A DNA stretch of 64,000 bases, taken from an uncultured Alphaproteobacteria bacterium. Lineage in GTDB: Bacteria; Pseudomonadota; Alphaproteobacteria; Rs-D84. Positions 3,600 to 58,134 of the stretch are shown piece by piece. The first letter of the stretch is position 1, and each line of letters starts with the position of its first letter. The stretch is taken from positions 214,178 through 278,177 of the forward strand of contig CALXMS010000001.1 in assembly GCA_944389535.1 (NCBI GenBank). Direction: 5' to 3'. A program made the translations under genes and the position numbers. The notes below the pieces were generated by a model. It saw only the letters and a program-made list of their open reading frames with translations. It did no database searches and was not told the DNA's origin.

Positions 3600-3628
3600 A
3601 AAGCCGTCGTATGACGGCTTTTTGTTTT
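3600..3628 (+). terminator. Intrinsic terminator between rplT and pheS
   Basis: AAAGCCGTC-GTAT-GACGGCTTT then TTGTTTT. Confidence 0.8.
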
Positions 3629-3645
3629 AATTTAAGGTAAAAGTT

Positions 3646-6940: not shown

Positions 6941-7603
6941 TTATGTAGTTCTATCTGATGCATTACACCATTTTGCCACAGGACACTCTTTGCATTTTGG
7001 GTGTAATGCCTTGCATATATATCTTCCGTGAAGAACCATAACGTGATTTACAATCGGATGATATTTTTTCGGGATAATTTTTAATAATTGCTCTTCGACT
7101 TTTTCTGGTGTATTTGCATCTGTACCGACCCAACCATAACGATGGGAATTTCGAAATACGTGAGTATCAACACCGATATTCGGCGCATTCCATAATACGT
7201 TCATAATAACGTTTGCTGTTTTTTGCCCTATTCCTGGTAACTTCATCAATGCGTCACGATTGTGGTATTTTTTCGGAAATTTATAATGTTCGTCTTTACC
7301 GTTTTTATCATCCATTAATGCAGCAGAAAGTCCGATAATACTTTTTGCTTTGTTATTAAAAAAAGATAAAACCCGAATATATTTTTTTAACCCATCTTCA
7401 CCAAGAGCCAACATTTTTGCCGGTGATGGTGCCACGCGAAATAATGCTGGTGTAACCTCATTTACTTTTTTGTCTGTTGCTTGGGCAGATAAAATTACCG
7501 CCACGGCAAAAGTAAACTCGTTTGTATGGTAAAGCTCACTGCGTATCGTCATGTCGATTACGCTTGGAACGTGTTTAAAATAAATTTCTGGTGTTAAAGC
7601 CAT
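6941..7603 (-). CDS. nth: Endonuclease III
   Basis: LSAQATD, HhH LPGIGQKTA, VDTHV, C-x6-C-x2-C-x5-C Fe-S cluster. Confidence 0.96.
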   Translation of the reverse strand: MALTPEIYFKHVPSVIDMTIRSELYHTNEFTFAVAVILSAQATDKKVNEVTPALFRVAPSPAKMLALGEDGLKKYIRVLSFFNNKAKSIIGLSAALMDDKNGKDEHYKFPKKYHNRDALMKLPGIGQKTANVIMNVLWNAPNIGVDTHVFRNSHRYGWVGTDANTPEKVEEQLLKIIPKKYHPIVNHVMVLHGRYICKALHPKCKECPVAKWCNASDRTT

Positions 7604-7605
7604 TT

Positions 7606-7983
7606 TTATTCAGCAAAATTGAAGTTTTCTAAACGAGATTCGCATAACTTCTGGCAGTCTGAATTGCAAATGTTTTTGACTTCTTCTTCCGAATCACCGT
7701 ACATTTCAACAGTATCTACCCATAGGTTTTTATGTTCTGCATTTGATGCAAAGCACAAACATCTGGTTGTATATTTTTCAGACTTAGTTTGTTCGTCTTT
7801 TATTACTTCATCGCCAATACGTTCATAGTTTGCAGAAAAACTTTTTTCTACGCCGATACCCGTACATTGAGAAGTGATTTTTATTTTATGGTCGTTTGTA
7901 TCTAATGTGCCGATATAAAATCCCGCAAAGAATATAACAGCAGCACATACAACCCAGACACATAAGATTAAAAGTTTACGCAT
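7606..7983 (-). CDS. Hypothetical membrane-anchored Cys-rich protein
   Basis: N-terminal hydrophobic helix, strong SD (AAAGGAG), sits in operon between ileS and nth. Confidence 0.7.
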   Translation of the reverse strand: MRKLLILCVWVVCAAVIFFAGFYIGTLDTNDHKIKITSQCTGIGVEKSFSANYERIGDEVIKDEQTKSEKYTTRCLCFASNAEHKNLWVDTVEMYGDSEEEVKNICNSDCQKLCESRLENFNFAE

Positions 7984-8010
7984 AAGTTATCTCCTTTTCT
8001 TACCTTTTTC

Positions 8011-11000
8011 TTAGGCTTTTGTAATAGATATGGATAAATTATATCCTTCTATTTCTGTATTATACTCACCAGACGTATTTTGCGACATATTTTTTATTAA
8101 GGCTTCGCTCATAATACGTTCTTTGTGTTGCTCAATCGCATTTGCAAGCGCAGGATCTGCGCTGTATTCCATATTTATGCGATCAGAAACGTCCAGCCCC
8201 ATCGTCTTACGCGTGTCTTGGATGAAACGTAGAGCATCGTTTGCCAAACCTTCCGCAACCAGTTCGGAATTTATTTCCGTATCCAACACAACAACAGCAG
8301 TGTTGTCTGGTAGTGCAGTACCAGTGACACCGTCTTTTACAGTTAAACGCTTTTCAAATTCATCGCTATTTAAAGAATAAGAACCAACGTTTAATTTGCC
8401 ATCAGAGATTTCATATTTTCCCTGTTTAACAGCAGGTATGATTTCTTTTAATGCGCCACCTAATCTTGCACCGATTTTTGGTGTGATTAGATATACAAAA
8501 GAATCGGCAACTGCGGAAATATCATCTGTGAATTCTACGTGTTTTACATTTAATTCGTCACGAATTATGTTTGCATAATTTTCCAGATTTGCACCGGCAA
8601 CAGTAAGCTTTGCCAAAGGTAAACGATTGCGCAATTTATATTGTTCACGCAACTGTTTGCCAACAGATACAACAGATTGAACGCGGCGCATATCTTCTAC
8701 AATTTTATGGTCGTATTCTGTTTTGTCCGGGAAAGATTGTAGGTGTACACTTTCTGAACCTGTTAGATTTCTGTAGATATAGTCGCTAATAAACGGAGCA
8801 AATGGCGCCAATGCACGACATACCGTGGTCAGAACATAATACAGTGTATCAAATGCATCTTGATCTTCATCCCAGAACCGTTCACGACTGCGACGAATGT
8901 ACCAGTTGTTTAATACATCTAAGAATCTGATAAATTCTTTGATTGCAACATCTGGTTTGTATTCGTCCAATGCATTTCCAACAACAGAAACCAATTCACT
9001 TAATTCCGCAATGATGTATTTGTCTAATGCGCTTTCAGAAACTGCATTATCACGTGCAGTAATATTTCCTGCATTTGCATACAAAGTAAAGAAATGGTAC
9101 GCGTTCCACAAAGGCGTTAGAATCGTCTTTGTTGGTTCGGCAAAAACTTTACCTTCTTTATCAACAGGAACAGGTTCTGCCTTTAAAAAGTTAGAACCTT
9201 GGATGAACAAGCGAATTGCATCCGCACCGAATTGTTCAATCTGTTCTTCTGGATTAACAAAGTTCTTTAATGATTTAGAGAATTTCTTTTTATTTTCATC
9301 AACTACCATACCATTTGCAGACACGGCCTTGAAGGCAGGTTTATCAAACAAAGCAGTTGCTAAAACCATCAGTGAATAGAACCAACCGCGAGTCTGGTCT
9401 TGCCCTTCGATAATATAATCTGCAGGGAAAGTCGCTTTAAATTTATCCTGATTTTCAAACGGATAGTGTAAAGAAGCCCAAGGCATAGAACCTGATTCGA
9501 CCCAGCAGTCCAAAACGTCTGTAATACGTTTCCAACCGTCTTTTGTTAATTTATCCAAAGTCGGTCTATGCAGGTCTTCAACCTTTACCCCAAAGAAATC
9601 TTCCAGTTCTTTGATAGAACCGAATACTTTATATTCACCGTCTTTTTCCCATATTGGTAACGGTGTTCCCCAAAAACGATTTCTGGAAATAGACCATGGG
9701 CGTGCACCCTCTATCCAAGTACGGAAACGTTCGCCAGCAGATGTCCAATTTACTTTTTTATTATTGGCAATCAACATGTCGCGAATTTTTGGCACGTCAA
9801 TATACCAAGAATCCGTTGCACGATAGATTAACTTTTCTTTACTACGGTCACTATATGGATAACTATGCTTATATTGTTCTTTTTTTACCAAATGACCGTT
9901 ATCACGCAGATATTGAATAATTTTTGGGTTTGCTTCAAAAATATTTTCACCGGCCCAATCTTTTACTTCTTCTGTGAAATTACCATAATTATCAACGTTT
10001 AAAATAACCGGAAATTTTGGGTCTATATCTTTTGCTGCCCAAAAGTCATCAGCACCATATGCGGGCGCAATATGAACGATACCAGTACCGTCTTCGTCAG
10101 AAACATATTCTGCCGGTATTACTTGGTACAATAAATCAGATGTATTTTCATAATAATTAAATAAAGGCTTGTAGTGTAAACCCACTAAATCCTTACCGAC
10201 TACGTCACCGATTTTTTCAGCATTTGCAAATTGTTTTTCATAAGCTTTTAATCTAGATTCAGCGATGACATAAACTGCCCCATCACTATCTTTCATGCGC
10301 AAGTATTTCATATTTGGATTAACTGCCAACGCACTGTTTGCAGGCAACGTCCAAGGCGTTGTTGTCCACGCCAGAACACGGTCACCATTTTCTAGTTCAA
10401 ACCAAACTGTAACGGCATCGTCAACAACATCACGGTAATCTTGAGAGGCTTCTGAATTAGAAACAACAGTACCATTTACCCAGTCAAAAGGGTTTACACT
10501 ATAATCTTTATATAATAAGCCTTTTTCGTATAAAGATTTCAGCGTCCACAACATAGATTCCATGTAATTTTTATCCATGGTTTTGTAGCCATAACCTTCA
10601 CCAACATCAACCCAACGCCCCATACGTTCAATGAATTTTTCCCATTCTTTCGTATATGTCAAAACGTCTGTACGGCACATATCACAGAATGCATCAATAC
10701 CCTGCTCGGCCACGATATCTTTTGCTTGTTTACCCTGCTTTTTTTCAACCGAATTTTCAGCGGGCAGTCCATGGCAATCCCAACCAAGTTCACGCACAAC
10801 ATGTTTACCACGCATAGTCTGATAACGTCCAACCATATCTTTAATGGCAGAAACCCCCAAGTGCCCCCAATGTGGCAAACCGTTACCAAAAGGCGGACCA
10901 TCATAGAAAGAAAAAGGATGACCTAGTTTGGTTTTATTCAAAGATTTGTGAAAAGTATCGTCTTTACGCCAGAATTCTAGAACCTGATGTTCCAATTCTG

Positions 11001-11037
11001 GGAAATTAGCCTTTGGGTCTGTTTTTGGGTATGCCAT
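8011..11037 (-). CDS. ileS: Isoleucyl-tRNA synthetase, type 2 (eukaryote/archaea-like)
   Basis: FYDGPPF, HWGH, GWDCHGLP, WTTTPWTLP, WSISRNRFWG, EGQDQTRGWF, KFSKS; long type-2 C-terminus (DELNVK...SDRI) without a Zn finger. Confidence 0.97.
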   Translation of the reverse strand: MAYPKTDPKANFPELEHQVLEFWRKDDTFHKSLNKTKLGHPFSFYDGPPFGNGLPHWGHLGVSAIKDMVGRYQTMRGKHVVRELGWDCHGLPAENSVEKKQGKQAKDIVAEQGIDAFCDMCRTDVLTYTKEWEKFIERMGRWVDVGEGYGYKTMDKNYMESMLWTLKSLYEKGLLYKDYSVNPFDWVNGTVVSNSEASQDYRDVVDDAVTVWFELENGDRVLAWTTTPWTLPANSALAVNPNMKYLRMKDSDGAVYVIAESRLKAYEKQFANAEKIGDVVGKDLVGLHYKPLFNYYENTSDLLYQVIPAEYVSDEDGTGIVHIAPAYGADDFWAAKDIDPKFPVILNVDNYGNFTEEVKDWAGENIFEANPKIIQYLRDNGHLVKKEQYKHSYPYSDRSKEKLIYRATDSWYIDVPKIRDMLIANNKKVNWTSAGERFRTWIEGARPWSISRNRFWGTPLPIWEKDGEYKVFGSIKELEDFFGVKVEDLHRPTLDKLTKDGWKRITDVLDCWVESGSMPWASLHYPFENQDKFKATFPADYIIEGQDQTRGWFYSLMVLATALFDKPAFKAVSANGMVVDENKKKFSKSLKNFVNPEEQIEQFGADAIRLFIQGSNFLKAEPVPVDKEGKVFAEPTKTILTPLWNAYHFFTLYANAGNITARDNAVSESALDKYIIAELSELVSVVGNALDEYKPDVAIKEFIRFLDVLNNWYIRRSRERFWDEDQDAFDTLYYVLTTVCRALAPFAPFISDYIYRNLTGSESVHLQSFPDKTEYDHKIVEDMRRVQSVVSVGKQLREQYKLRNRLPLAKLTVAGANLENYANIIRDELNVKHVEFTDDISAVADSFVYLITPKIGARLGGALKEIIPAVKQGKYEISDGKLNVGSYSLNSDEFEKRLTVKDGVTGTALPDNTAVVVLDTEINSELVAEGLANDALRFIQDTRKTMGLDVSDRINMEYSADPALANAIEQHKERIMSEALIKNMSQNTSGEYNTEIEGYNLSISITKA

Positions 11038-11059
11038 ATTGTGTACTCCTTAGCATTAT

Positions 11060-11082
11060 AAAAAACGGGCGCCTATGCGCCC
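11060..11082 (-). terminator. Attenuator terminator upstream of ileS
   Basis: Minus strand GGGCGC-ATAG-GCGCCC-GTTTTTT. Confidence 0.8.
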
Positions 11083-11110
11083 CAGCCACGTGCAGAAGCG
11101 CAGTGCTGAG

Positions 11111-11143
11111 TTATTTTATAATAATTATCATTGCCTTTTTCAT
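11111..11143 (-). CDS. Ile-rich leader peptide MKKAMIIIIK (ileS attenuator)
   Basis: ATG AAA AAG GCA ATG ATA ATT ATT ATA AAA TAA: four tandem Ile codons directly upstream of antiterminator/terminator and ileS. Confidence 0.8.
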   Translation of the reverse strand: MKKAMIIIIK

Positions 11144-11153
11144 ATTAAATCTG

Positions 11154-11229
11154 TGGTGCCGGTTATAGGACTTGAACCTACGACCCCCTCATTACGAATG
11201 AGATGCTCTACCAGCTGAGCTAAACCGGC
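11154..11229 (-). tRNA. tRNA-Thr(CGT)
   Basis: GCCGGTT acceptor, anticodon loop TT-CGT-AA, TTCAA T-loop, encoded ACCA. Confidence 0.96.
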
Positions 11230-11356
11230 ATATGCGTGTTATCTTAATATATGTTTCCATGAATTTCCAGTATATTTTATTTATCTTATTTTATTGCTAA
11301 ATATGAATAAATTCATTAAGATATTTATGCATATTTGACTATAAAAAGGGAAAAAA

Positions 11357-11926
11357 ATGAAAAAAATATTTTTAACAACAATTTTAGCAATATTACCAAT
11401 ATCTGCGTTTGCAGAAATAGAATATAAAATTATAAAACCAAAATTTTTTGTAGAATATGGTGCCACTATATTATCAAGTAATGGCATAAAAACCAAAGCT
11501 AATGATACAGTTGTTTCAGATGTTGATACGTTAACTTTTAATGCAGGAAATGCATTATTTGTTGGTGGAGATTTTAATGGTGTTCAATTGGGTTTTTCAC
11601 CATCGTATACAGACCAAGAAGGAACATCAGAATTTGATTTGTTATTAAAGTTAGATATACCTTTTATGGAAGGTAATTTTCAACCGTATTTTTCTTTATC
11701 TGCTGGGTTGGGTATAATGAGTATGGATGATTTAAATATAGATAACGAGCTTAGTTTTGCATATGGTATAGGTGGTGGAGTGAAATATAGTTTCAGTGAA
11801 AATATTTATATGAAATTTGGCTTAGAATATGCAGGAATAAGTTTTTCTACATCAGTTGAAAATGTAGATATTGATTTAACATCTTCTGGATTTGGGCTAA
11901 CAGCTAATTTTGGATATGTGTTTTAA
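11357..11926 (+). CDS. Outer-membrane beta-barrel protein (OmpA/OmpW-like 8-stranded)
   Basis: Signal peptide (SAFA), PYFSLSAGLG, FAYGIGGGVKY, terminal GYVF; very AT-rich. Confidence 0.85.
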   Translation: MKKIFLTTILAILPISAFAEIEYKIIKPKFFVEYGATILSSNGIKTKANDTVVSDVDTLTFNAGNALFVGGDFNGVQLGFSPSYTDQEGTSEFDLLLKLDIPFMEGNFQPYFSLSAGLGIMSMDDLNIDNELSFAYGIGGGVKYSFSENIYMKFGLEYAGISFSTSVENVDIDLTSSGFGLTANFGYVF

Positions 11927-11927
11927 T

Positions 11928-11955
11928 AAAAAAGGGCGTATCTAGCGCCTTTTTT
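11928..11955. terminator. Bidirectional terminator
   Basis: A-tract GGGCG...CGCCT T-tract between convergent genes. Confidence 0.7.
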
Positions 11956-11957
11956 AT

Positions 11958-13610
11958 TTAGTTGTTTCCACATTTAATTTTACGCAAAACTACCATTATT
12001 CCTGCAGGTGTCATACCTGGTATTCTGGATAAGTCCGCTATGTTTTCAGGACGTGTTGCAGTTAGTTTTTCTATTAACTCATTAGTTAACCCCGGCAGAT
12101 TTTTATATTCAAAATTTACAGGTATTTTCATCGCAGCGTCGCGTTTATATGATGCGATTTCGCGTTCGTTTCTTTGAATGTAGCCAGCGTAAAATTTATC
12201 GTTTTCTTTTATCTTTTCTGCGCGAATTGCATATTTTCTATCAAAATCTTCTTCTGTAATAAGCCCCAGTTTTACGGCAATTTTCCCCAGACGTACAATC
12301 GCATTATCACTGCGTAATGATAACCTGTATTCCGCACGTGATGTAAACATGCGGTATGGTTCATCTACGCCTAGTGTTGTTATATCATCAATTAATACGC
12401 CGATCATAGAATTTGTTCTGTCCAGATTTAATGTATCCTTTCCTAATGCAAATGCAGCGGCATTAGCACCAGCTACAATACCCTGCGCTGCGGCTTCTTC
12501 ATAACCAGATGTTCCATTAATTTGACCTGCAAAGAACAAACCTGAGATATCTTTTGATTCCAAAGTTTCTTTTAACGCACGTGCGTCAATTGCGTCATAT
12601 TCAATTGCGTAACCATAGCGCACAATTTTGGCCTTTGCTAAACCAGGTATTGTACGAATCCATACGTCTTGAATGTCTGCGCCAAAACTTGTTGATATAC
12701 CGTTCGGGTAAATCAAATTACTGTTTAAACCTTCTGGTTCTAAGAAAACATGATGGGACAAGTGTTCTGGAAATCGCATAATTTTGTCTTCTAGTGATGG
12801 ACAATAACGTGGGCCAGTTCCTCGTATATCACCGTTATACATCGGTGCATTTGAAATGTTTTCGCGAATTATATCGTGCGTGCGCCGGGTCGTATGAGTT
12901 ATATAGCATACTGCGTCATAATTATTATCTGGATTTGGTGCAGAAAACCAATCGTGTGGATTGTCGCCTGGTTGCAGTTCGCATACAGAAAAATCTATTG
13001 ATGTTTTATCTATACGTGCCGGTGTTCCCGTTTTTAAGCGCATTATGTTAAACCCAGCATCTGATAAGATACAAGAAATATTTCTATCTGGTGCTTGGTA
13101 TTCGCCGCTATCAGTTATACGTCCTGAAGGAACTTTTTCGTCACCTCTTGTTACCAAACCATGTAAAAAAGTTCCTGTTGTTAAAATGAGGGCTTTTGCA
13201 GAATATTTATTGTTTACAACTTTATTTGCTATATCTAAATTTTCAACAGTTTCAAAAAGAACAGTTAGATTTTTATAATTTTTCAGAATTTTTACTATTT
13301 CGTTGTGGTAAAGTGAACGATCTATTTGTGCGCGTAACGCTTGCGTTGCGGCACCGTGGGACGCATTCAAAGTACGGAAATGAATACCAGATGCATCTGC
13401 AGCTATGCTCATGACGCCGCCCAATGCGTCAATTTCTGCAACCATTTGTGATTTGCCGGGACCACCAATACTTGGGTTACAAGACATTGCCCCTAAGTCC
13501 ATTTCGCACTGGGTAAGCAACAAAGTACGTGCACCACGTCGAGAAGACGCTGTTGCAGCCTCTACCCCGGCGTGACCACCACCAATAACGATTACATCGA
13601 ATTCTGTCAT
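11958..13610 (-). CDS. mnmG: tRNA uridine-5-carboxymethylaminomethyl modification enzyme MnmG (GidA)
   Basis: [64 protein letters not shown]. Confidence 0.98.
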
Positions 13611-13625
13611 TTTATATTAGTTATA

Positions 13626-14354
13626 TTAGAAACGCCCCATGCCACCGTTTATATGTAATACCTGACCGTTTATATAAGAAGCTTCATCTGAGGCCAAGAA
13701 TACACATGCGTTTGCAATGTCTTCTGGTTCACCAAAGCGTCCAGCCGGGATTTGTGCTAAGTATGATTTTTTTAATTCATCAGACAAAACATCTGTCATA
13801 GGTGTTTTAATAAAACCAGGAGCAATGCAGTTAGCCGTAATACCACGGGAACCTACTTCTGCAGCAATGGACTTAGTCATTGCAATCATACCGCCTTTTG
13901 AGGCAGCATAATTTGCCTGTCCTGGTCCACCGATTGTACCGATTATAGATGCCATGTTAATTATACGACCAAAGCGGTTTTTCATCATCGGCATAATGAC
14001 AGCGCGACACATTTTAAAGCATGAACGTAAGTTAGTGTTTATAACATCTTCAAATTGGTCGTCAGTCATACGCATTAACAAAGTATCTTTTGTGATACCA
14101 GCGTTGTTAACGACAATATCTATTTTACCGGCCGTATCAATTGTTGATTGAACCAAATCAATTGCACCGTTGTCAGACGCTAAATCAATCGGAATTTTAA
14201 TATATGAGTTGTCAAATTGAGCGTCTAGTTTATCTATACTGCGACCAGACACAACGACAGTTGCTCCCGCTTCTTTCATTTTTCTTGCGATTGCACCACC
14301 TATACCACCTGTTGCACCTGTGATTAATGCTACTTTACCTGTTAAATTAAACAT
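13626..14354 (-). CDS. fabG: 3-oxoacyl-ACP reductase
   Basis: TGATGGIG, NNAGITKD, YAASK; follows fabD. Confidence 0.96.
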   Translation of the reverse strand: MFNLTGKVALITGATGGIGGAIARKMKEAGATVVVSGRSIDKLDAQFDNSYIKIPIDLASDNGAIDLVQSTIDTAGKIDIVVNNAGITKDTLLMRMTDDQFEDVINTNLRSCFKMCRAVIMPMMKNRFGRIINMASIIGTIGGPGQANYAASKGGMIAMTKSIAAEVGSRGITANCIAPGFIKTPMTDVLSDELKKSYLAQIPAGRFGEPEDIANACVFLASDEASYINGQVLHINGGMGRF

Positions 14355-14356
14355 TT

Positions 14357-15232
14357 TTATATCTCCAATTTTTTAGATGTCATATCTGAGCAAATGCGCC
14401 CAGTTAAACCAGTTAAAACGTTGCCTGGTCCAACTTCAATTGTTTCTGTAATGCCAAGTTCGTGCATTTTTAGAACAGATTCACGCCAGTGAACGCCATG
14501 TGTAATTTGGTATACCAAAGCCTCTTTTATTTCTGCTGGATCAGACATAGGAGCCGCAGTTTTATTAGATATTAAAATTGCTTTTGGCGTTTTGATTTCT
14601 ATACTTTCTAACGCTGCGCGCATTTCGTCTGCGGCTGGTGCTTGAATGCGACAATGTACTGGTACAGATAACGCTAATGGCATAGCTCGTTTTGCACCAG
14701 ATTCTTTTGCCAATGCCATAGTTTTTTCTACGACATCTTTTGCACCAGATATAACTACCTGTCCGGGTGAATTATCATTCGCAACATCACAGTCTGTCTG
14801 TGTGCAAATTTCACGTATTTTCTCAATATCTAGACCTAATATAACGGCTGTTAATCCTTCGCCGACGGGAACAGCTCGTTGCATGGCGTCACCGCGTAAA
14901 CGTAACAATCTGGCGGTATCCGCTAAAGACAAAGCACCAGCTGCGCATAATGCAGTATATTCACCCAAACTGTGTCCGGCAACGTATTCTGTTAATTGTA
15001 CGCCACTTGCGCGTAACATAGCTATCGATACTGCCATAATTGCCGGTTGAACATTTGTTGTTAAAGTAAGGTCTTCCATCGGACCGTTAAATATAATATC
15101 AGATAGTTTTTGATTCAACGCATCATCAACCTCATCAAATACGGCGCGTGCGTCAGGATTGTTTTCATATAAGTCTTTTCCCATCCCAACGGTTTGCGAA
15201 CCTTGACCGGGGAAAACAAGTATAGATGCCAT
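14357..15232 (-). CDS. fabD: Malonyl-CoA:ACP transacylase
   Basis: FPGQGSQ, GHSLGEY; start moved to MASILV after SD GGAG. Confidence 0.96.
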   Translation of the reverse strand: MASILVFPGQGSQTVGMGKDLYENNPDARAVFDEVDDALNQKLSDIIFNGPMEDLTLTTNVQPAIMAVSIAMLRASGVQLTEYVAGHSLGEYTALCAAGALSLADTARLLRLRGDAMQRAVPVGEGLTAVILGLDIEKIREICTQTDCDVANDNSPGQVVISGAKDVVEKTMALAKESGAKRAMPLALSVPVHCRIQAPAADEMRAALESIEIKTPKAILISNKTAAPMSDPAEIKEALVYQITHGVHWRESVLKMHELGITETIEVGPGNVLTGLTGRICSDMTSKKLEI

Positions 15233-15288
15233 ATAAACTCCTTTAAACTTGAGTTCATTATAGAATTGAAAACCCACAATCGCAAATA

Positions 15289-15861
15289 TTATCTGACGGG
15301 AACTGTTTTAGATATTGTTTCGCCCTTTTCATTCGTTTCTTTGCGAATAGAAAATTCACAACCACAATAATTTTGGCGATAAAAGTTAAATTCATGACCT
15401 ATTTTTTGACGTAAAGCCTCATCCCAGTTTATTGGAATATATTGAGTACCAAGTGCCGATGTGCCCGCACGATCAACTTGAGACTGGTCCTTGTGACGAG
15501 ATACCCCAAACACAGATGTAATCGCATCATAACCGCGTTCTTGGGCCCATTTTTTTGCATATTCAAATCTAAACTGAAAACATTTACTGCAACGTGAACC
15601 GCGTTCTGGTTCTGATTCCAAACCTTTTATAGCGTTGCGCCATTCGTCGTGATTATATTCACCAATGGCATACTTTACGCCAAGTTTTTCACAATATTTA
15701 ATTTGTTCGTAAAGTCTTTTATCATATTCAGCAGCAGGGAAAATGTTTGGGTTAAAGAATAACACTATAAAATCTTCTACGCCAGATATTGCACCTTCTG
15801 CTAGTTGTTTTATTGCGCCTGCACTGCACGGCGCGCAACAAGACATAAGAACTAACTTCAT
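15289..15861 (-). CDS. queH: Epoxyqueuosine reductase QueH family
   Basis: CCAPC, NPNI, EPERGSRCSKC, YRQNYCGC. Confidence 0.9.
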   Translation of the reverse strand: MKLVLMSCCAPCSAGAIKQLAEGAISGVEDFIVLFFNPNIFPAAEYDKRLYEQIKYCEKLGVKYAIGEYNHDEWRNAIKGLESEPERGSRCSKCFQFRFEYAKKWAQERGYDAITSVFGVSRHKDQSQVDRAGTSALGTQYIPINWDEALRQKIGHEFNFYRQNYCGCEFSIRKETNEKGETISKTVPVR

Positions 15862-15862
15862 A

Positions 15863-16129
15863 TTATCTAGTAAATTTATAACTACGCAATCTTATTGCGC
15901 GTTTTACTACTGTTATGGCTTTGTTGTAATCTTTTGTATTTATTTGTATAACGTCATATTCGTTCAAAGTAGTATTCGGTAATCTTTGTTGTATATATTC
16001 GTATACTTTGCAATTGTCCATTTGATTGCAGTTCATAAAATTACGACATTCCACACACGTCATTCTATCTACAAATACAGTTTGGTTATCATTTGAAATA
16101 ACTATGTCTATTTTTTTATTAAATATCAT
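15863..16129 (-). CDS. Hypothetical protein with Cys cluster
   Basis: 88 aa, SD AAGG, C-x2-C-x5-C-x5-C; tightly packed between metG and queH. Confidence 0.65.
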   Translation of the reverse strand: MIFNKKIDIVISNDNQTVFVDRMTCVECRNFMNCNQMDNCKVYEYIQQRLPNTTLNEYDVIQINTKDYNKAITVVKRAIRLRSYKFTR

Positions 16130-16139
16130 TTTTTACCTT

Positions 16140-18137
16140 TTATATAACTTTACCTATTTGTACATCTGGGTCTAATTCCACTATATCATTAGAATTTTCA
16201 CCCTGCCCCAATTCAGCAGCACTGCACATCATACCATAAGATTCTATACTTGCAACTGTTCTTTGCATTATAGGTTTTTTCGCCCCGGGTAATACACAAC
16301 CTATGGGAGCAAGTACCCCAATCAGACCTATACGAACATTTGGTGCGCCACATACAATTTGTAATTCATGATTTGTACCGTCATCAACCGTTAAAATATG
16401 CAGATTTTCTTGGGTTGGATGACTTTTTATTGCGACGATTTTTGCAGCAATTGGTTTTGGTGCGTCATCCAACTTTGGCACGTACTTTTCTTTCAGCGCT
16501 GCAATGGTTTCTTCATCTATACGTGTGAACAAGTTTTCTGGAACAGTAAATTCGGTACCGTCCGCTATACGTGACGTATAAGTTTCTGGCCATGACAGGT
16601 TTAAATCTGCGCTAAAGATTTTTCTGATTTTTTCTGCGGTGTCTGGAATAAAAGGAGCAGATGCACGTGCATATAAATCTATCAGTTGAAAGCATTGATT
16701 TAATACAGCACCGGCCGCATCTGTTTTACCGCCTTTAACCAATGCCCATGGTTCTTTAATGGTCATAAATTCATTACCAAGTGCGTATAAAGAACGCAAC
16801 GCAACAACGGCTGCACGGAATTCACAAGCATCCAACGCAGTTGTCAGTTCAGATAACTTTTCGTTAATCTGTGTGATTAAATTATCATCAGCAGAACCTG
16901 CCTTTGGAACCTGCAAACCAAAGTTTTTTTCTGTCAGTTTGCAAACGCGTGAAACAAAGTTCCCCAACATACCGTTTAGGTCTTTATTTACGATATCGGC
17001 AAAGCGAGAGAAGGTAAAGTCGGTATCGTCTGTTTCTGGTGCAGATGCGATCAAAGCGTAGCGCCATGCATCTGCAGGTGCAATTTCAATAGCCTGGTCT
17101 AAAAACACACCACGATTTTCAGACTTAGAGAACTTTCCACCTTCAAAGTTTAAGAAATTCATAGCCTTTAATTGATCAACCGTTTTCCAGTTGTCTTGCA
17201 GTGCTAATTGTTGTTCAGGGAATAACACAGCATGGAATTTCACGTTATCTTTTCCCATAAACTGTGCATAATGTGTTTTTGGGTTTTTCCACCAAGATTC
17301 CCAATCTTTATTTGCCGCCTGTGAAATAGAAACGTAACCCCATGGTGCATCAAACCAAACATAGAAAACTTTATTTTCATACCCTGGTTTGTTTACAGGA
17401 ATACCCCAAGACAAATCACGGGTAATGGAATAATCTTGTAAACATGCTTTTGCCCACCCTTGCGCAATATTTATTGCCGTCTTTGACCAATCTTTCGAGT
17501 TGTTTGCCAACCAGTCTTCCCATAATTGTTGAGCTTTTGATGCCAAAAAGAACAAGTTTTTTGTCGGTCTCATTTCAATATTAGTACTACCAGAAATGGT
17601 ACTGCGTGGGTTTAGTAATTCTGTTGCTTCATAAGTTGCACTGCACTTATCACATTGGTCACCACGGGCTTTTTCATAACCGCACTTTGGACATGTTCCA
17701 ACCAACTGACGGTCCGCTAAGAACATATTGTCATCAACTGAAAAAGGCTGTAATGTTTCGCGTTCTTCAATCAAACCCTGTTCATCAAGACGGGTGAATA
17801 AATCTTGAACCAATTTTTCTTGTAATTTTGTATGCGTACGTCCATAAAGGTCAAATGACATATTAAAGTCTTTTACAGCGCGTAGATGCTTTTCATAATA
17901 TTTAGTTGAATAATCAAAAGGTTTCATGTTTTCCTTCATTGCGCCGACGACAACAGGGGTACCATGCTCATCAGCACCACAAACATACAAAACGTCACGT
18001 CCGCATGCACGGCAGAAACGGGCGTAAATGTCAGAAGGTAACCAACATCCGATTAAATGACCTAGGTGTAATTCACCGTTTACGTAGGGCAATGCGGATG
18101 TTATTAAATATTTTTGTTTTTTGTCGTTGTTTGTCAT
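16140..18137 (-). CDS. metG: Methionyl-tRNA synthetase with C-terminal tRNA-binding OB domain
   Basis: TSALPYVNG, HLGH, GADEHG, CPKC/CDKC knuckles, YVWFDA, KFSKS. Confidence 0.98.
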   Translation of the reverse strand: MTNNDKKQKYLITSALPYVNGELHLGHLIGCWLPSDIYARFCRACGRDVLYVCGADEHGTPVVVGAMKENMKPFDYSTKYYEKHLRAVKDFNMSFDLYGRTHTKLQEKLVQDLFTRLDEQGLIEERETLQPFSVDDNMFLADRQLVGTCPKCGYEKARGDQCDKCSATYEATELLNPRSTISGSTNIEMRPTKNLFFLASKAQQLWEDWLANNSKDWSKTAINIAQGWAKACLQDYSITRDLSWGIPVNKPGYENKVFYVWFDAPWGYVSISQAANKDWESWWKNPKTHYAQFMGKDNVKFHAVLFPEQQLALQDNWKTVDQLKAMNFLNFEGGKFSKSENRGVFLDQAIEIAPADAWRYALIASAPETDDTDFTFSRFADIVNKDLNGMLGNFVSRVCKLTEKNFGLQVPKAGSADDNLITQINEKLSELTTALDACEFRAAVVALRSLYALGNEFMTIKEPWALVKGGKTDAAGAVLNQCFQLIDLYARASAPFIPDTAEKIRKIFSADLNLSWPETYTSRIADGTEFTVPENLFTRIDEETIAALKEKYVPKLDDAPKPIAAKIVAIKSHPTQENLHILTVDDGTNHELQIVCGAPNVRIGLIGVLAPIGCVLPGAKKPIMQRTVASIESYGMMCSAAELGQGENSNDIVELDPDVQIGKVI

Positions 18138-18151
18138 TTGTTAACCTTTTA

Positions 18152-18183
18152 ATTAAATAATATAGGCGCCCAACGGGCGCCCA
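18152..18183 (-). terminator. GC-rich hairpin / putative attenuator terminator upstream of metG
   Basis: TGGGCGCCC-GTT-GGGCGCCTA followed by TATTATTT (imperfect U tract). Confidence 0.6.
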
Positions 18184-18212
18184 ATGAATCCCGTCAGAGT
18201 TTTTTATTAAAA

Positions 18213-18230
18213 TTAATTGTACATTCGCAT
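18213..18230 (-). CDS. Putative Met-containing leader peptide MRMYN
   Basis: ATG CGA ATG TAC AAT TAA preceded by GGAA, between tRNA-Val and the metG hairpin. Confidence 0.5.
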   Translation of the reverse strand: MRMYN

Positions 18231-18256
18231 AATTTTTATTTCCGTTTTTTCTTAAC

Positions 18257-18333
18257 TGGTGGGTGGTATTGGACTCGAACCAACGACCTTTACGATGTCA
18301 ACGTAACGCTCTAACCAACTGAGCTAACCACCC
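18257..18333 (-). tRNA. tRNA-Val(GAC)
   Basis: GGGTGGT acceptor, TTACG-TT-GAC-AT-CGTAA, TTCGA, ACCA. Confidence 0.96.
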
Positions 18334-18410
18334 AAAACTTTACGGATTATATCAAAGATATTCATGATTGCAATATTAAAGTAAAAGAAAACTAGTCTGT
18401 TTCCCCTAAA

Positions 18411-18439
18411 ATAAAACCGTACATGGCGTACGGTTTTAT
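18411..18439 (-). terminator. Terminator after accC
   Basis: AAAACCGTAC...GTACGGTTTT. Confidence 0.75.
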
Positions 18440-19851
18440 TTTTTTGTGTTTTTTTTCTTCTTTTCAGTTTTTTTAGGTGTATCTTCTTTATGTTCTTTTT
18501 TTTCTTGTTCAGATTTTAAATACGTTTCCAACCAATGATTGTCAAAATTTAAGGTTTTTACGTCACGATTGTTCAATAAACGTTGTTGTAAAGGTATAGT
18601 TGTTTTTATACCTTCAATAACGAATTCATCTAATGCACGGGTAGCGCGCATAAGACACGCAGGTCTGTTTGGGGCGTGCACAATTAGTTTTGCAATCATA
18701 GAATCGTACGTAGGCGGAATTGTATAACCTGTGTATACTGCGCTGTCCACGCGAACGCCCATACCACCAGATGGTGCGTATAAAGTTATTTTACCAGGAT
18801 TCGGTATAAATGTTTCTGGATCTTCTGCATTTATACGAAATTCTATTGCATGCCCATGTGGTATAACGTTAGATTGAGTATAACCCAACTTTTCGCCGGC
18901 AGCGATACGAATCTGTTCGCGTACCAAATCAACACCGTATACCATTTCCGTTACAGGGTGTTCTACCTGTAATCTGGTATTCATTTCTAGGAAATAGAAC
19001 TTACCGTCTTCAAACATAAATTCGAAGGTTCCTGCATTTACATAACCCATTTTTTTCGCAGCAGTTTTACATATTTCTATCATGTCATCGCGCTGTTTCT
19101 GGGTCAATATAGCTGCCGGACATTCTTCCATAACTTTTTGATTTTTACGTTGTAAAGAACAGTCGCGTTCCCCGAAAATAACGACGTTACCATGTGTGTC
19201 ACCCAATACTTGAAATTCTATGTGTCGTGGGCGCATAAGCAATTTTTCCATATAAAGGGTATCGTCACCAAAGCCGGATTTCGCTTCGTTTTTTGTCATT
19301 TGAAACGCTTCAGGCATTTGGTCCGGAGACATAACCGGACGAATTCCACGACCACCCCCACCGGCTGCGGCTTTTAGCATAACTGGATAACCGATTTTTT
19401 CTGCCCAATCTAACGCTTCTTCCAAAGAATTTACCGCCCCTTCTGAACCAGGAACCACGGGTAATCCGCACTTTATAGCGGTTTGTTTTGCGTTTACCTT
19501 GTCCCCCATCTTTTCTATCATTGCGGCAGACGGCCCAATCCAAATAAGCCCATGTTGTTCAACTTTTTGTGCAAAATCTGCTCGTTCTGATAAAAAACCA
19601 TATCCAGGATGAATCGCATCCGCGTTTGTCAGCAGCGCAGCCGTTAAAATGGCCGATTCATTTAAATATGAATCCTTAGACGGACCTGGACCAATACAAA
19701 CGGATTCATCCGCCAGTTGCACGTGCATAGCGTTTCTATCAACTGTTGAATAAACGGCCACAGTACGAATGCCCATATCACGACATGCACGAATTATACG
19801 CAGTGCAATTTCACCACGGTTTGCTATTAAAACTTTTTTTATCTGTGACAT
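18436..19851 (-). CDS. accC: Acetyl-CoA carboxylase biotin carboxylase
   Basis: ANRGEIA, HPGYGFLSE, GGGGRG, EMNTRLQVEH, YDSMIAK. Confidence 0.97.
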   Translation of the reverse strand: MSQIKKVLIANRGEIALRIIRACRDMGIRTVAVYSTVDRNAMHVQLADESVCIGPGPSKDSYLNESAILTAALLTNADAIHPGYGFLSERADFAQKVEQHGLIWIGPSAAMIEKMGDKVNAKQTAIKCGLPVVPGSEGAVNSLEEALDWAEKIGYPVMLKAAAGGGGRGIRPVMSPDQMPEAFQMTKNEAKSGFGDDTLYMEKLLMRPRHIEFQVLGDTHGNVVIFGERDCSLQRKNQKVMEECPAAILTQKQRDDMIEICKTAAKKMGYVNAGTFEFMFEDGKFYFLEMNTRLQVEHPVTEMVYGVDLVREQIRIAAGEKLGYTQSNVIPHGHAIEFRINAEDPETFIPNPGKITLYAPSGGMGVRVDSAVYTGYTIPPTYDSMIAKLIVHAPNRPACLMRATRALDEFVIEGIKTTIPLQQRLLNNRDVKTLNFDNHWLETYLKSEQEKKEHKEDTPKKTEKKKKNTKK

Positions 19852-19858
19852 TTTTCAA

Positions 19859-20314
19859 TTATTCAATAACAATTATTGGTTGATCAAATTCAACGGCTTG
19901 ACCGTCAGAAACTAAAATTTCTTTTACTATTCCGTCTTTGTCAGATTTTATCGGATTAAATGTTTTCATCGCTTCAATTAGTGCGACGGTATCACCGGTT
20001 TTTATTTGCGCACCAACGCTAGTAAATGGTTTTGCCCCTGGCTCTGGTGCAAGATATGCAACACCAACCATCGGGGACTTTAACGCGTAACCGTTTATCG
20101 CAGTTTCTGTATCTGCAGGTTCGCTGTTTGTGTTCTTTGATTCTGACGCCACAGGAAAATTCGGCATGGCAACAGCAGTTGTACCCTGTTGTTTAGATAA
20201 ATGAATGTGTTTGCGATATACGCCAAATAAAAACTGACGTTCTAAATCTAATTCTGTAATACCCATTTCGTCCATGATTTTTGACATAGATTCAACGGTT
20301 GCTCTAAAAGACAT
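19859..20314 (-). CDS. accB: Biotin carboxyl carrier protein
   Basis: SPMVG, EAMK biotinylation motif. Confidence 0.96.
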   Translation of the reverse strand: MSFRATVESMSKIMDEMGITELDLERQFLFGVYRKHIHLSKQQGTTAVAMPNFPVASESKNTNSEPADTETAINGYALKSPMVGVAYLAPEPGAKPFTSVGAQIKTGDTVALIEAMKTFNPIKSDKDGIVKEILVSDGQAVEFDQPIIVIE

Positions 20315-20400
20315 TTTTTAATCCTTTATATATAATCTTATATGAGTTCTTTAACTTTTCCTCAATGTGCCCAAAAATTTTACCACAATCACATCAGTTG

Positions 20401-20655
20401 TCAAGGGACAGGGTCATAACCAAAGCCACCACCTGGTCGACAGCGCATTATTCTGCGTAATCCAAGCCCCATACCGCGAAGTATTCCGTGCTTCTCTATT
20501 GCTTGGGCTGTATATTCGCTACAGGTAGGTATAAATCTGCACGCTGCCCGTCCGCCTGTGAATGGTGATATGCAAGTTTGGTACAATCTAACCAATTTTA
20601 ATGCGGCAATTTTTAAAAATGATGAAAAAAAGTTAGTCTTTTTTGGGGTTATCAT
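20401..20655 (-). CDS. yidD: Membrane protein insertion efficiency factor
   Basis: [23 protein letters not shown]. Confidence 0.95.
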
Positions 20656-57996: not shown

Positions 57997-58005
57997 TTTG
58001 CATGC

Positions 58006-58110: not shown

Positions 58111-58134
58111 ATAAATAAACCAAAAGGGAAATCA

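Follow-up and report, generated by a model that had tools for sequence, protein, structure and literature searches.

The short frames and hairpins 5' of ileS and metG in the DNA analysed here (the window, 64,000 nucleotides from the gut alphaproteobacterium Candidatus Enterousia, whose genome measures about 0.9 Mb) are probably 5' leaders of synthetase mRNAs which act by ribosome-mediated transcription attenuation; we give this explanation a probability of about 0.75. It is based on the conservation of the leaders, the coding-type variation of their frames, the terminators and a covarying ileS antiterminator, in genus genomes that are metagenome-assembled throughout. The device type is already known, since it corresponds to classical leader-peptide attenuation as in pheST, and the gene set is unusually broad here: of 18 synthetase genes surveyed, eight carry predicted attenuation, which a nearby tRNA gene would often drive. 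According to the accessible part of a report, Enterousia lacks amino-acid biosynthesis (PMC12306168).

Organization of the ileS and metG loci

An earlier note on this DNA had described the order tRNA gene, mini-frame, terminator, synthetase gene at two loci. We found this order at both, with all features on the minus strand:

8011..11037, minus strand: ileS, 1008 aa, long MupA-like form (NCBIfam TIGR00392, 787.7 bits, cut-off 621.4)
11060..11082, minus strand: ileS intrinsic terminator, GGGCGC-AUAG-GCGCCC then G U6 (hairpin 11082..11067 plus T run)
11076..11102, minus strand: ileS antiterminator hairpin, UGCGCUUC... with ...GGGGCGCA, the latter in the terminator 5' arm (from covariation)
11083..11108, minus strand: P1 hairpin, CAGCACUGC / GCACGUGGCUG (from folds), proposed anti-antiterminator and possible pause hairpin
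11111..11143, minus strand: ileS leader frame MKKAMIIIIK*, genus-conserved
11154..11229, minus strand: tRNA-Thr(CGT), non-cognate (ARAGORN; Rfam tRNA, 69.2 bits)
11241..11270, minus strand: putative tRNA-Thr promoter region CTGGAAA ... TAAGAT, below the consensus-scan threshold
16140..18137, minus strand: metG, 665 aa (NCBIfam TIGR00398, 477.1 bits, cut-off 336.35)
18163..18183, minus strand: metG terminator, UGGGCGCC-CGU-UGGGCGCCUA, then the weak tail UAUUAUUU (covarying stem)
18190..18194, minus strand: ACGGG box, proposed 5' strand of a metG antiterminator, able to pair with CCCGU at 18177..18173 (from invariance)
18213..18230, minus strand: metG leader frame ATG CGA ATG TAC AAT TAA (MRMYN*), conserved in 17/30 loci
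18257..18333, minus strand: tRNA-Val(GAC), non-cognate, 5' of the metG leader (ARAGORN)
18346..18373, minus strand: predicted tRNA-Val promoter TTGCAA-16-TATAAT with an upstream TG (consensus scan, 10/12 matches)

The distances given in the note are correct: the spacers measure 116 nt from tRNA-Thr to ileS and 119 nt from tRNA-Val to metG, and the frames start 10 and 26 nt, respectively, after the tRNA CCA. Both tRNAs are indeed non-cognate to the synthetase that follows. The ileS frame reads ATG AAA AAG GCA ATG ATA ATT ATT ATA AAA TAA, with the Ile codons ATA ATT ATT ATA at 11128..11117 and the stop TAA at 11113..11111; P1 begins 3 nt past this stop, and the ileS SD, AAGGAG, lies at 11051..11046.

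The ileS leader frame is under coding constraint

Among 87 distinct ileS upstream regions of the genus, 86 contain a frame of the form M-x4-IIII-[K/R/Q/G]-stop, starting with ATG in 84 cases and with GTG in two; the frame is absent in one region. Its length is 10 codons in 74 of the 84 aligned leaders. Residues 2-5 vary freely, the Ile codons vary synonymously between ATA, ATT and ATC, and the stop alternates between TAA, TGA and TAG. These synonymous changes, the three stops, the free residues and the fixed length together indicate a coding constraint, and we infer that the short frames are translated. A search of the ileS and metG leaders against Rfam returned no family, T-box included, at E up to 1.

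Competing RNA structures in the ileS leader

The RNAalifold consensus structure of the ileS leaders is the antiterminator. Pairing in this hairpin reaches 93.4% of the cells and falls to 30-62% if the partner strand is slid; four pairs have changed on both sides and the covariation score is higher than in all of 500 shuffles. We also observed compensatory changes that involve three strands at once (upstream strand / terminator 5' arm / terminator 3' arm): the class TACGC/GGGGCGTA/ACGCCCC occurs once and the class CGCAC/GGGGTGCA/GCACCC three times. The terminator hairpin was found in 84/84 leaders, and two of its positions show GC-to-UA compensations.

Over these 84 leaders the mean fold z-scores are -3.35 for the antiterminator, -3.11 for the terminator and -1.87 for P1; the stop codon and the start of P1 are 1-5 nt apart in 76 leaders. 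In the sequence-based alignment the covariation of P1 is not significant (75.4% of the cells paired, a score reached by 387 of 500 shuffles). Equilibrium folds of the full leader favour P1 and the terminator at every ribosome placement, whereas folds of truncated transcripts favour the antiterminator at every placement, so that thermodynamics alone does not discriminate between the two states.

The metG leader

At metG, a frame with an invariant ATG CGA ATG is held by 17 of the 30 genus loci. Codons 4 and 5 vary (NAN AAN), mostly at first and third positions, the TAA is kept and all 5' extensions of the frame are multiples of three. The frame, MRMYN, contains no Met run, and its invariant CGA points to a constraint at the RNA level or on that particular codon. 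Six of the eight terminator stem pairs have changed on both sides in the 17 leaders, while the ACGGG box (once GCGGG) and the loop CCCGUU are kept in all 17; because the ACGGG and CCCGU columns are invariant, no covariation is possible for the proposed antiterminator. A candidate P1 (AAUCUU:GGGAUU) is 90.2% paired, a value that 59 of 500 shuffles reach, and is suggestive only. With a mini-frame, an ACGGG box and a covarying terminator, metG has the parts list of ileS and is a putative sensor.

Cognate leaders on other synthetase genes

The note had proposed a scan of the synthetase genes for leaders with cognate codons. Leaders were found on eight of 18 genes, ileS and metG included, and no leader with cognate codons at the other 10. 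In the window genome, genus-conserved cognate leaders precede thrS (TTTTT), hisS (HH), cysS (CC), lysS (K-K/R), serS (SSS) and trpS (W), and frames with cognate runs recur at the orthologous loci genus-wide; no convincing Phe leader was seen at pheS of this genome. For six of the eight genes, runs of the cognate residue outnumber all others in the upstream short frames, with counts of 84/87 for Ile (at least three), 29/29 for Thr (at least three), 23/28 for HisHis, 23/28 for CysCys, 13/29 for SerSer and 14/27 for LysLys. The Rfam search of the thrS, serS, hisS, lysS, trpS and cysS loci gave no family at E up to 0.1.

In the lysS leader the frame stop lies 2-8 nt (mode 4) 5' of the antiterminator strand GUGCGACC, and the majority of the folds listed (26 foldable loci of 27 scored) join this strand to the terminator arm GGACGCAC; as modelled, this is the textbook classical geometry. 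In the hisS leader HH is directly fused to the hairpin in 23/28 loci. Judged from sequence, all six genes are predicted to run on the same principle as ileS and metG in Enterousia. The genome-wide control put forward in the note is thus supported by the six further conserved cognate leaders and limited by the 10 of 18 genes that carry none.

Upstream tRNA genes and promoters

A tRNA gene is located upstream at 36/87 ileS, 19/30 metG (counted as a tRNA-Val 3' end on the same strand as metG), 5/27 lysS and 7/28 cysS genus loci; in the window genome, lysS stands behind a non-cognate tRNA-Gly and cysS behind a non-cognate tRNA-Ser. No upstream tRNA was found at any thrS, hisS, serS or trpS locus. 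The tRNA-Thr 3'-end motif lies upstream at 27 of the 86 ileS loci with a frame and is missing from the other 59. In 32 of these 59 there is a match to TTGnnn-N16-18-TAnnnT whose end is 3-10 nt (mode 7-8) 5' of the frame start, a position that would leave the frame nearly leaderless. Another 27 of the 86 match neither pattern. The tRNA, which the note had made part of the device, is therefore optional, as the frame is kept without it. The note's idea that the tRNA terminator doubles as an amino-acid gate survives in that a covarying antiterminator and the ileS terminator are in competition; the tRNA itself does not belong to the device.

The sigma70-like promoters ascribed to both tRNA genes fared unequally. 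That of tRNA-Val is a scan match and the second-best promoter-like site in 7500-20500, whereas that of tRNA-Thr falls below the scan threshold and only its motif is visible; CTGGAAA...TAnnnT is also seen 5' of tRNA-Thr in several relatives. Because only 10 and 26 nt part the tRNA from the frame, transcription of the leaders from the tRNA promoter is the simplest reading for the window genome: tRNA and leader would be co-transcribed, and tRNA-Thr(CGT) is the likely source of the ileS leader promoter. In general, upstream non-cognate tRNA genes may serve as interchangeable promoter donors. In the RNA runs searched, matches cover the tRNA part alone and the contigs diverge from the window beyond the tRNA.

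Proposed mechanism, regulatory sign and alternative explanations

In the mechanism that we propose for ileS, the frame with its four Ile codons, probably near-leaderless, would be translated while the polymerase, presumably with pausing in the leader, makes three overlapping hairpins. The 11-bp antiterminator would take part of P1 together with the 5' arm of the terminator; P1 plus terminator would yield a short transcript, and the antiterminator would let the polymerase read into ileS. A shortage of Ile-tRNA would hold the ribosome at the last Ile codons, loosening P1 and freeing the antiterminator strand, so that ileS is transcribed. A ribosome that reaches the stop would either mask the base of the antiterminator or leave and allow P1 to re-form, with termination as the outcome. 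We consider this classical logic, in which Ile-tRNA shortage switches ileS on, the most likely one. Footprint modelling covered 84 ileS leaders, with 15 nt or 12 nt masked. With the 15-nt mask and the A site on Ile4, P1 weakens from a mean of -9.9 to -5.6 kcal/mol while the antiterminator is unchanged at -15.0; with the ribosome on the stop the antiterminator falls to -5.0, weaker than the terminator (-11.3). With the 12-nt mask, a ribosome on the stop abolishes P1 (-3.0) and keeps the antiterminator at -13.6; a stall at Ile1-3 leaves P1 intact. The sign is model-dependent, since the 12-nt footprint would give the opposite one from the 15-nt footprint, and sequence alone cannot fix it.

In a switch of that opposite sign, licensed by translation, naked RNA or an early Ile stall would leave P1 in place and cause termination, whereas a ribosome reaching the Lys codon or the stop would melt P1 in favour of the antiterminator; ileS output would then track the reading of Ile codons in a stringent-like manner. 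The distance of P1 from the stop fits this proposal, as a ribosome on the stop would cover its 5' strand, and so does the 12-nt model, in which the antiterminator outweighs the terminator. The all-A/U Ile codons cannot join a stem, and P1 is made before the 3' strand of the antiterminator, so on kinetic grounds it might form first and lock the terminating state. However, such a switch amounts to positive feedback, less IleRS giving less ileS, which is hard to square with cognate leaders on at least six synthetase genes; within this lineage, lysS has a leader of classical geometry, and a 15-nt exclusion zone yields the classical sign. We know of no precedent for cognate-codon leaders of translation-licensed sign and regard this version as unlikely.

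Less probable still, and concerning mainly metG, is a switch made of RNA only, with untranslated frames and a conserved sequence bound by a protein (e.g. the synthetase), a tRNA or a small molecule; in E. coli, thrS is controlled by its own product, which binds the leader, a case touched on in PMC2965389. The metG leader suits this idea in several respects: no nucleotide of ATGCGAATG, the Arg codon CGA included, varies in 17/17 leaders, a Met run is absent from the frame, and the ACGGG box follows the stop at a distance of 17-19 nt, too far for a terminating ribosome to reach. Yet the metG frame itself varies as a coding sequence would, in codons 4-5, stop and in-frame extensions, the ileS frame does so in its synonymous Ile codons, three stops, free residues 2-5 and fixed length, each gene has its own cognate residue, and no known RNA family was matched in the Rfam searches. 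That the loci show ordinary tRNA terminators and chance short frames, with ileS and metG transcribed from their own downstream promoters, we hold to be extremely improbable and at odds with the comparative data. Such a reading would agree with the similar GC-rich hairpins that follow tRNA-Cys and tRNA-Val-TAC in the window, with a TATAAT after the ileS T run, and with four metG loci and one ileS locus (L114) that consist of a tRNA and a plain terminator without a frame. The ileS terminator stem, however, ends only 29 nt before the start codon, and a start after this TATAAT would remove the SD; frame and hairpins persist in ileS loci that lack the tRNA motif, and at 32 of these loci the promoter pattern is matched just 5' of the frame; the ileS antiterminator covaries, and cognate specificity holds across genes. 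Both frames and both hairpins form conserved, non-chance regulatory leaders (86/87 ileS and 17/30 metG loci).

Comparison with known systems

In E. coli, pheM encodes a Phe-rich leader peptide before the phenylalanyl-tRNA synthetase genes pheST. This attenuator, cited as a reference case in the accessible text of PMC1262725, likewise places a leader of cognate codons and a terminator/antiterminator on a synthetase gene of a proteobacterium. Unlike pheM, to which they have no sequence relation, the Enterousia leaders target ileS and metG together with six or more further synthetase genes. The 10 codons of the ileS frame are almost purely A/U, all of the structure is 3' of the stop, and numerous copies seem to be near-leaderless or joined to a preceding tRNA gene. 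The Firmicutes T-box regulon, a functional analogue, also covers many synthetase genes per genome with cognate-specific terminator/antiterminator switches that respond to tRNA charging. T-boxes act by direct binding of uncharged tRNA, with no need for translation. The Enterousia leaders, in contrast, have no Rfam match (E up to 1 for ileS and metG, up to 0.1 for the six other loci) and, with about 70 nt after the frame, are far too short for a T-box.

Classical attenuators with a leader ORF, an antiterminator and a terminator 5' of the synthetase gene were predicted by comparative genomics for leuS and trpS2 of Streptomyces (Seliverstov et al. 2005, PMC1262725), in another phylum, on other genes and, as far as the accessible text goes, on one or two genes per genome compared with eight here; a link to tRNA genes is not mentioned in that text. 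In bacilli, a His leader peptide precedes a hisS paralog and hisZ, and the same source, in its accessible part, emphasizes how sensing systems are swapped from one lineage to another (Naville and Gautheret 2010, PMC2965389). In both cases a short frame with consecutive His codons precedes a member of the hisS family, whereas in Enterousia, an alphaproteobacterial lineage, hisS itself carries the leader. Ribosome-dependent attenuation is also described in the alphaproteobacterium Sinorhizobium meliloti, where, in the accessible text, trpL controls the biosynthetic trpE(G) (PMC6614838) and not, as here, synthetase genes.

Terminator-like sites and the shared 10-mer

Between 7500 and 20500 of the window we counted 17 terminator-like sites, against 10.5 (sd 3.5) in shuffles; the metG hairpin is listed first and the ileS hairpin second among them. 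The 10-mer GGCGCCCGTT which the note had found in both hairpins is present there, and these two exact copies are the only ones in the window and also in the whole genome (0.06 expected; two copies reached in 0 of 100 shuffles). Its sharing appears to be coincidental terminator vocabulary: in ileS it spans the 3' arm and runs into the T run, its place in metG is the 5' arm and the loop, and other tRNA terminators in the window have similar GCCC/GGGC stems.

Layout of the ileS and metG loci

Two loci of the window, both read on the minus strand, carry the same order of elements.

Features of the two loci
11154-11229, minus: tRNA-Thr(cgt), found by ARAGORN
11143..11111, minus: ileS leader frame ATG AAA AAG GCA ATG ATA ATT ATT ATA AAA TAA (MKKAMIIIIK, stop), starting 10 nt past the tRNA-Thr CCA
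between this frame and ileS, minus: GC-rich hairpins, a U6 run and an AAGGAG SD, read from the sequence
11082..11060, minus: ileS terminator, GC stem and U6, found by the scan for terminator-like sites
11037..8011, minus: ileS ORF of 1008 codons (NCBIfam TIGR00392, 787.7 bits)
18257-18333, minus: tRNA-Val(gac), found by ARAGORN
18230..18213, minus: metG leader frame ATG CGA ATG TAC AAT TAA (MRMYN, stop), starting 26 nt past the tRNA-Val CCA
between this frame and metG, minus: A/U-rich spacer, ACGGG and hairpin UGGGCGCC-CGU-UGGGCGCCUA
18137..16140, minus: metG, identified with NCBIfam

The earlier note had described, at both places, a tRNA gene followed by a minute leader peptide, a terminator and a synthetase gene, and this was borne out in every detail: the tRNAs by ARAGORN, ileS and metG by NCBIfam, and the frames and hairpins at their place. 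Between window positions 7500 and 20500 we found 17 terminator-like sites versus 10.5 expected, with the ileS and metG hairpins listed first and second. In the scan for promoter-like sites, tRNA-Val has a good promoter (TTGCAA-16-TATAAT) and that of tRNA-Thr is weaker; a CTGGAAA...TAnnnT motif upstream of the latter is visible also before tRNA-Thr in several relatives.

The 10-mer GGCGCCCGTT has two copies in the window and in the genome, both in these two hairpins. We considered it as a mark of common descent and rejected this idea, since its structural role differs between the ileS and metG hairpins; the ileS copy is also lost in relatives where CCC precedes A, T or C, and terminators of this genome often have GCCC/GGGC stems.

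The assembly has 882 kb in six contigs. Genomes of Candidatus Enterousia (order Rs-D84), which are uncultured gut alphaproteobacteria, are described, in the part of the source available to us, as smaller than 1 Mb and devoid of amino-acid synthesis pathways (PMC12306168). Each public RNA run listed had only 0.04-0.06 of the sampled words in common with the window. Matches in four RNA runs were confined to the tRNA-Thr gene (11153-11229), the contigs diverging beyond it, and are uninformative on expression, transcript ends and co-transcription.

Conservation of the ileS leader frame

We gathered ileS loci from 18 genomes of the genus and 80 named records, that is 98 loci with 90 distinct upstream regions, 87 of which have at least 200 nt. 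The short frames noted in a single genome recur at orthologous loci: a frame M-x4-I-I-I-I-[K/R/Q/G]-stop is present in 86 of the 87 distinct ileS upstream regions of the genus (84 with ATG, two with GTG), and the metG frame in 17/30 genus loci. At L114, the sole ileS locus without the frame, a plain terminator stands between tRNA-Thr and ileS. Such a frame is absent from all 10 ileS loci of other genera in the order.

In the 84 aligned distinct leaders, the length is 10 codons in 74, residues 2-5 vary freely, the stop codon is TAA, TGA or TAG, and ATA, ATT and ATC interchange at the Ile positions, the first being almost always ATA. The ileS leader is conserved and, by this pattern of substitution, reads like a coding frame; it has the short ORF, rich in cognate codons and maintained as a reading frame, that characterizes an attenuator.

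Alternative hairpins of the ileS leader

The terminator hairpin is found in 84/84 leaders, with compensatory pairs and a mean z of -3.11, so that an intrinsic terminator separates the leader ORF from the structural gene. When RNAalifold was applied to the alignment of the 84 leaders (A1), the consensus was not this terminator; it was a helix of UGCGCUUU with GGGGCGCA, the latter being the 5' arm of the terminator. In folds of individual sequences, this antiterminator is lengthened to an 11-bp hairpin, UGCGCUUUGGC-GGUG-GCUGGGGCGCA, of about -15 kcal/mol. It is paired in 93.4% of cells versus 30-62% with slid partners, four of its pairs have changed on both sides, and its covariation score is higher than those of all 500 shuffles. 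We also observed a three-way compensation, in which a change in the 5' arm of the terminator is matched both in its 3' arm and in the upstream strand (GGGGCGU once, GGGGUGC three times). The antiterminator and the terminator are mutually exclusive, as in an attenuator.

A further hairpin, P1 (GGCACUGC/GCGGUGGCU), is present in every ileS leader and starts 1-5 nt past the stop codon in 76/84 of them. Its mean energy is -9.9 kcal/mol and its mean z -1.87, with 61/84 leaders below -1.5 versus shuffles; its covariation is not significant on the sequence-based MAFFT alignment of the 84 leaders. P1 has UGC in common with the antiterminator strand. It is compatible with the terminator, and the antiterminator excludes both. 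As P1 begins past the stop codon, it can be reached only by a ribosome at Ile4, Lys or stop.

Direction of the proposed ileS switch

With a ribosome footprint masked, equilibrium folding gave no separation of the states, whether the leaders were full or ended after the antiterminator. We then considered the hairpins in a footprint model of the 84 leaders, with 12 or 15 nt masked from the first A-site base. With 15 nt masked and the A site on Ile4, P1 falls to -5.6 (from -9.9) and the antiterminator keeps -15.0 kcal/mol; with the same mask on the stop codon, the values are -1.6 and -5.0 kcal/mol, to be set beside a mean of -11.3 kcal/mol for the terminator alone. In such conditions the model yields the classical sign, with read-through when the ribosome is stalled at the last Ile codons and termination when it is on the stop codon. 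The opposite sign comes out of the 12-nt mask, with which P1 is lost (-3.0 kcal/mol) and the antiterminator stays strong (-13.6 kcal/mol) when the ribosome sits on the stop codon, and P1 is intact when it stalls at Ile1-3; efficient decoding of Ile would then be the condition for ileS read-through.

We favour the classical sign for ileS over the reverse, because cognate-specific leaders on many synthetase genes make sense only as negative feedback, and because the lysS leader of the same lineage shows the textbook geometry. Here, 2-8 nt (mode 4) lie between the end of the lysS frame and the antiterminator strand GUGCGACC; of 26 folded loci, most show this strand paired with the terminator arm GGACGCAC. 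A classical ileS switch would need P1 as a pause hairpin, which would keep RNA polymerase waiting for the ribosome.

The metG leader

In the 17 loci with a metG frame, ATGCGAATG is invariant and CGAATG is unchanged (17/17); the following two codons are variable (NAN AAN), TAA is retained, and the 5' extensions (ATG, ATGATA-type, ATGCCC) are all in frame. The Met content is the start and one internal AUG in 5-6 codons, with no run. The terminator stem has compensatory changes in 6/8 pairs. The loop of this stem, CCCGUU, is complementary to the upstream ACGGG and both are fixed, an ACGGG:CCCGU pairing being possible in 17/17 leaders; this suggests an antiterminator for metG, whose columns are invariant and thus give no covariation support. 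AAUCUU, which overlaps the stop codon, pairs in 90.2% of cells with GGGAUU, which overlaps the ACGGG box, and this pairing is a candidate, only suggestive, for a P1 of metG. Inspecting the leaders by eye, we also considered that CGAAUG might pair with the GGGAUUC region and dropped the idea, as this pairing is lost in the GGGAAUC and GGGUUUC variants.

Among the metG loci without the frame, four have tRNA-Val and a plain terminator directly before metG, and nine have neither the frame nor the tRNA with terminator, most of these showing a plain promoter. In our view the metG element is a genuine, attenuator-like leader, for which Met-tRNA, initiator tRNA or a bound factor are candidate inputs.

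Leaders of the other synthetase genes

By Pfam searches of the genome we located 18 synthetase genes. NCBIfam confirmed 11 of them (ileS, metG, thrS, serS, hisS, lysS, trpS, tyrS, aspS, glyS and proS); gltX, argS, cysS, pheS and alaS, and valS and leuS as an undistinguished PF00133 pair, are named on a Pfam basis alone. The earlier note had envisaged control of this kind at synthetase genes in general. Examination of the other synthetase genes in this and related genomes yielded cognate leaders at thrS, serS, hisS, cysS, lysS and trpS, so that the finding is broader than that note saw.

Leaders found outside the window, with their occurrence in loci of the genus
thrS (L141): MMNKNVVFFIITTTTTPTGV, stop; TTTTT; Thr run of at least 3 in 29/29
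serS (L142): MIKLFLSFCLSSSPFGVLI, stop; SSS; SerSer in 13/29
hisS (L143): MKFENNFFTAFHHFHHSDCL, stop; HHFHH; HisHis in 23/28
cysS (L269): MTIKFINFYCCR, stop; CC; behind tRNA-Ser; CysCys in 23/28
lysS (L144): MKFNFKKIFN, stop; K..KK; behind tRNA-Gly; frame in 27/27, LysLys in 14/27
trpS (L145): MIEMYSYFDFVIYWRR, stop; W; W-R and hairpin in about 10/26, by eye

When all short upstream frames are counted, runs of the cognate residue are more frequent than those of any other in 6/8 genes. A scan of short frames for three identical residues gave 37 hits, of which only those of ileS, thrS and serS are leaders; the hisS, cysS and lysS leaders were missed by it and were found by reading each synthetase upstream region. 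A genome-wide scan for terminators before genes returned mostly ordinary gene-end terminators.

A second architecture is common to thrS, serS and hisS: a hairpin of the form CCCC-loop-GGGG or GCCC-loop-GGGC lies within the frame, immediately after the cognate codons, and A/U-rich sequence and a TATAAT-like box come next. The thrS form is also found in 3/10 genomes of other genera in the order. At three thrS loci of other genera (L330, L335 and L337), the leader ends in ...T-T-(T)-P-stop, with the stop codon in the loop of the CCCC-loop-GGGG hairpin; at four others (L332, L333, L338 and L339), ThrRS is apparently N-terminally extended and there is no leader.

In this genome, no leader was found upstream of the two PF00133 genes (valS, leuS), gltX, argS, proS, glyS, aspS and alaS, and the upstream regions of pheS and tyrS show nothing convincing. 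The pheS gene (Pfam match, window 3877-4581) lies downstream of the presumed rplT and its terminator. It has no pheM-like leader: the only upstream frame, near window 3600-3644, is GTG ATT TAT TTT GTA TTA TAA (VIYFVL, stop), with a single Phe codon.

tRNA genes as probable promoter donors

A same-strand tRNA gene lies upstream of ileS in 36/87 loci (tRNA-Thr), of metG in 19/30 (tRNA-Val), of lysS in 5/27 (tRNA-Gly(GCC)) and of cysS in 7/28 (tRNA-Ser(GCU)); no genus locus of thrS, hisS, serS or trpS has one. When the 86 ileS loci holding the frame were searched for motifs, 27 showed a tRNA-Thr 3' end, 32 a TTGnnn-N16-18-TAnnnT pattern and 27 neither. In those 32 loci, 3-10 nt (mode 7-8) separate the end of the promoter pattern from the frame start, so that the RNA would begin at the frame or close to it. 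In 19/29 thrS leaders this pattern is likewise found, ending 6-10 nt ahead of the frame, and the two metG leaders that lack a tRNA (L041 and L046) show it too. From this distribution, the tRNA gene is apparently a facultative promoter donor for the leaders. In the window genome, the gaps of 10 and 26 nt are too small for a promoter, and co-transcription of the leader with the upstream tRNA is therefore likely.

At the loci without a frame where the synthetase gene stands straight behind a tRNA and a plain terminator (L114 for ileS; L042, L043, L052 and L055 for metG), expression must depend on read-through of the terminator or on an unseen promoter; this arrangement may represent the attenuator in an ancestral or a degenerate form. 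In two relatives (L034 and L049), two to three tandem GC-rich repeats (CCTTCGCCAAGGCTTCGGGTGGCAAGCCA-like) lie straight after the tRNA-Val CCA, before the metG leader or promoter.

Comparison with known systems

Attenuation of a synthetase gene by a leader peptide is known from E. coli pheST. To our knowledge, the regulation of synthetase genes is poorly known beyond E. coli (pheST, thrS) and the T-box world. In the portions of two papers available to us, leader-peptide attenuators are predicted before leuS and trpS2 of Streptomyces (PMC1262725) and before a hisS paralog in bacilli (PMC2965389). The accessible literature, subscription journals and supplementary files aside, reports no leader peptides before ileS, thrS, serS, cysS or lysS, and no such leaders for Enterousia.

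No Rfam family, the T-box and the amino-acid leaders among them, gave a match to the ileS and metG leaders (window 7000-20000, E up to 1), nor at the thrS, serS, hisS, lysS, trpS and cysS leader loci (E up to 0.1). Unlike a T-box riboswitch, with its specifier loop and T-box sequence, neither the ileS and metG leaders nor the six others match that model, and none of them reaches the gathering threshold of Thr_leader, His_leader, Leu_leader, Trp_leader and the like; the only Leu_leader matches were at an unrelated locus, L328 (29.8 and 26.3 bits versus 50). Judged from their sequences, these elements probably belong to the class of classical leader-peptide attenuators. The mechanism is a known one and its deployment is new and unusually broad.

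Taking these observations together, we give a probability of about 0.5 to the following reading. Leader-peptide attenuation would have become the general regulator of synthetase genes in Candidatus Enterousia, where at least seven synthetases would sense their own charged tRNA via tiny, mostly leaderless frames; the whole would be an analogue, based on translation, of the T-box regulon known from Firmicutes. The modules would have been shuffled between promoters of their own and the ends of non-cognate tRNA genes, so that a tRNA terminator would have become a gate for sensing. Two architectures at least would coexist, one in which the frame is followed by the antiterminator and the terminator (ileS, lysS, metG) and one in which the cognate codons are fused to a hairpin inside the frame (thrS, serS, hisS), and one of them may use an unconventional sign or ribosome-polymerase coupling.

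Eight small putative sensors that can be read from the sequence are kept on synthetase genes in a lineage reported to lack amino-acid biosynthesis; charged-tRNA homeostasis therefore seems to be what selection retains in this reduced symbiont. Being both short, at about 100 nt, and diverse (ileS has about 90 natural variants, with compensatory changes), the leaders make a good natural data set on how the position of the ribosome sets the choice of the terminator, its sign included. The interchange of versions apparently driven by a tRNA promoter with self-promoted leaderless versions illustrates how a tRNA terminator can give rise to an attenuator or have one grafted onto it. All these leader frames are missed by annotation pipelines.

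Other elements

We also observed a structured leader (GGTGTGGWAACC ... CCACC-loop-GGTGG-Tn), about 170 nt long, in five copies, before genes of 144-383 aa.

Copies of the structured leader
L326:1-300
L327:1-300
L328:500-760, minus
L328:2100-2430, plus
L329:100-325

The five products have no Pfam match, two of them having been searched as their first 171 and 184 residues. The leader itself gave in Rfam only sub-threshold matches to sRNA-Xcc1, for two copies (34-37 bits versus 53), and it may be an undescribed family of cis-regulatory RNA.

At window 58000-58134 (plus strand), two hairpins in tandem, with T runs, lie downstream of a strong promoter (TTGATT ... TGTGATATAAT). The ORF at 58135-59925 (596 aa) has a weak match, below the cut-off, to the N-terminal domain of the phage T7 tail fibre (E 1.6e-4). 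Similar leaders, with a promoter and then two hairpins, are found on contigs C6 and C2.
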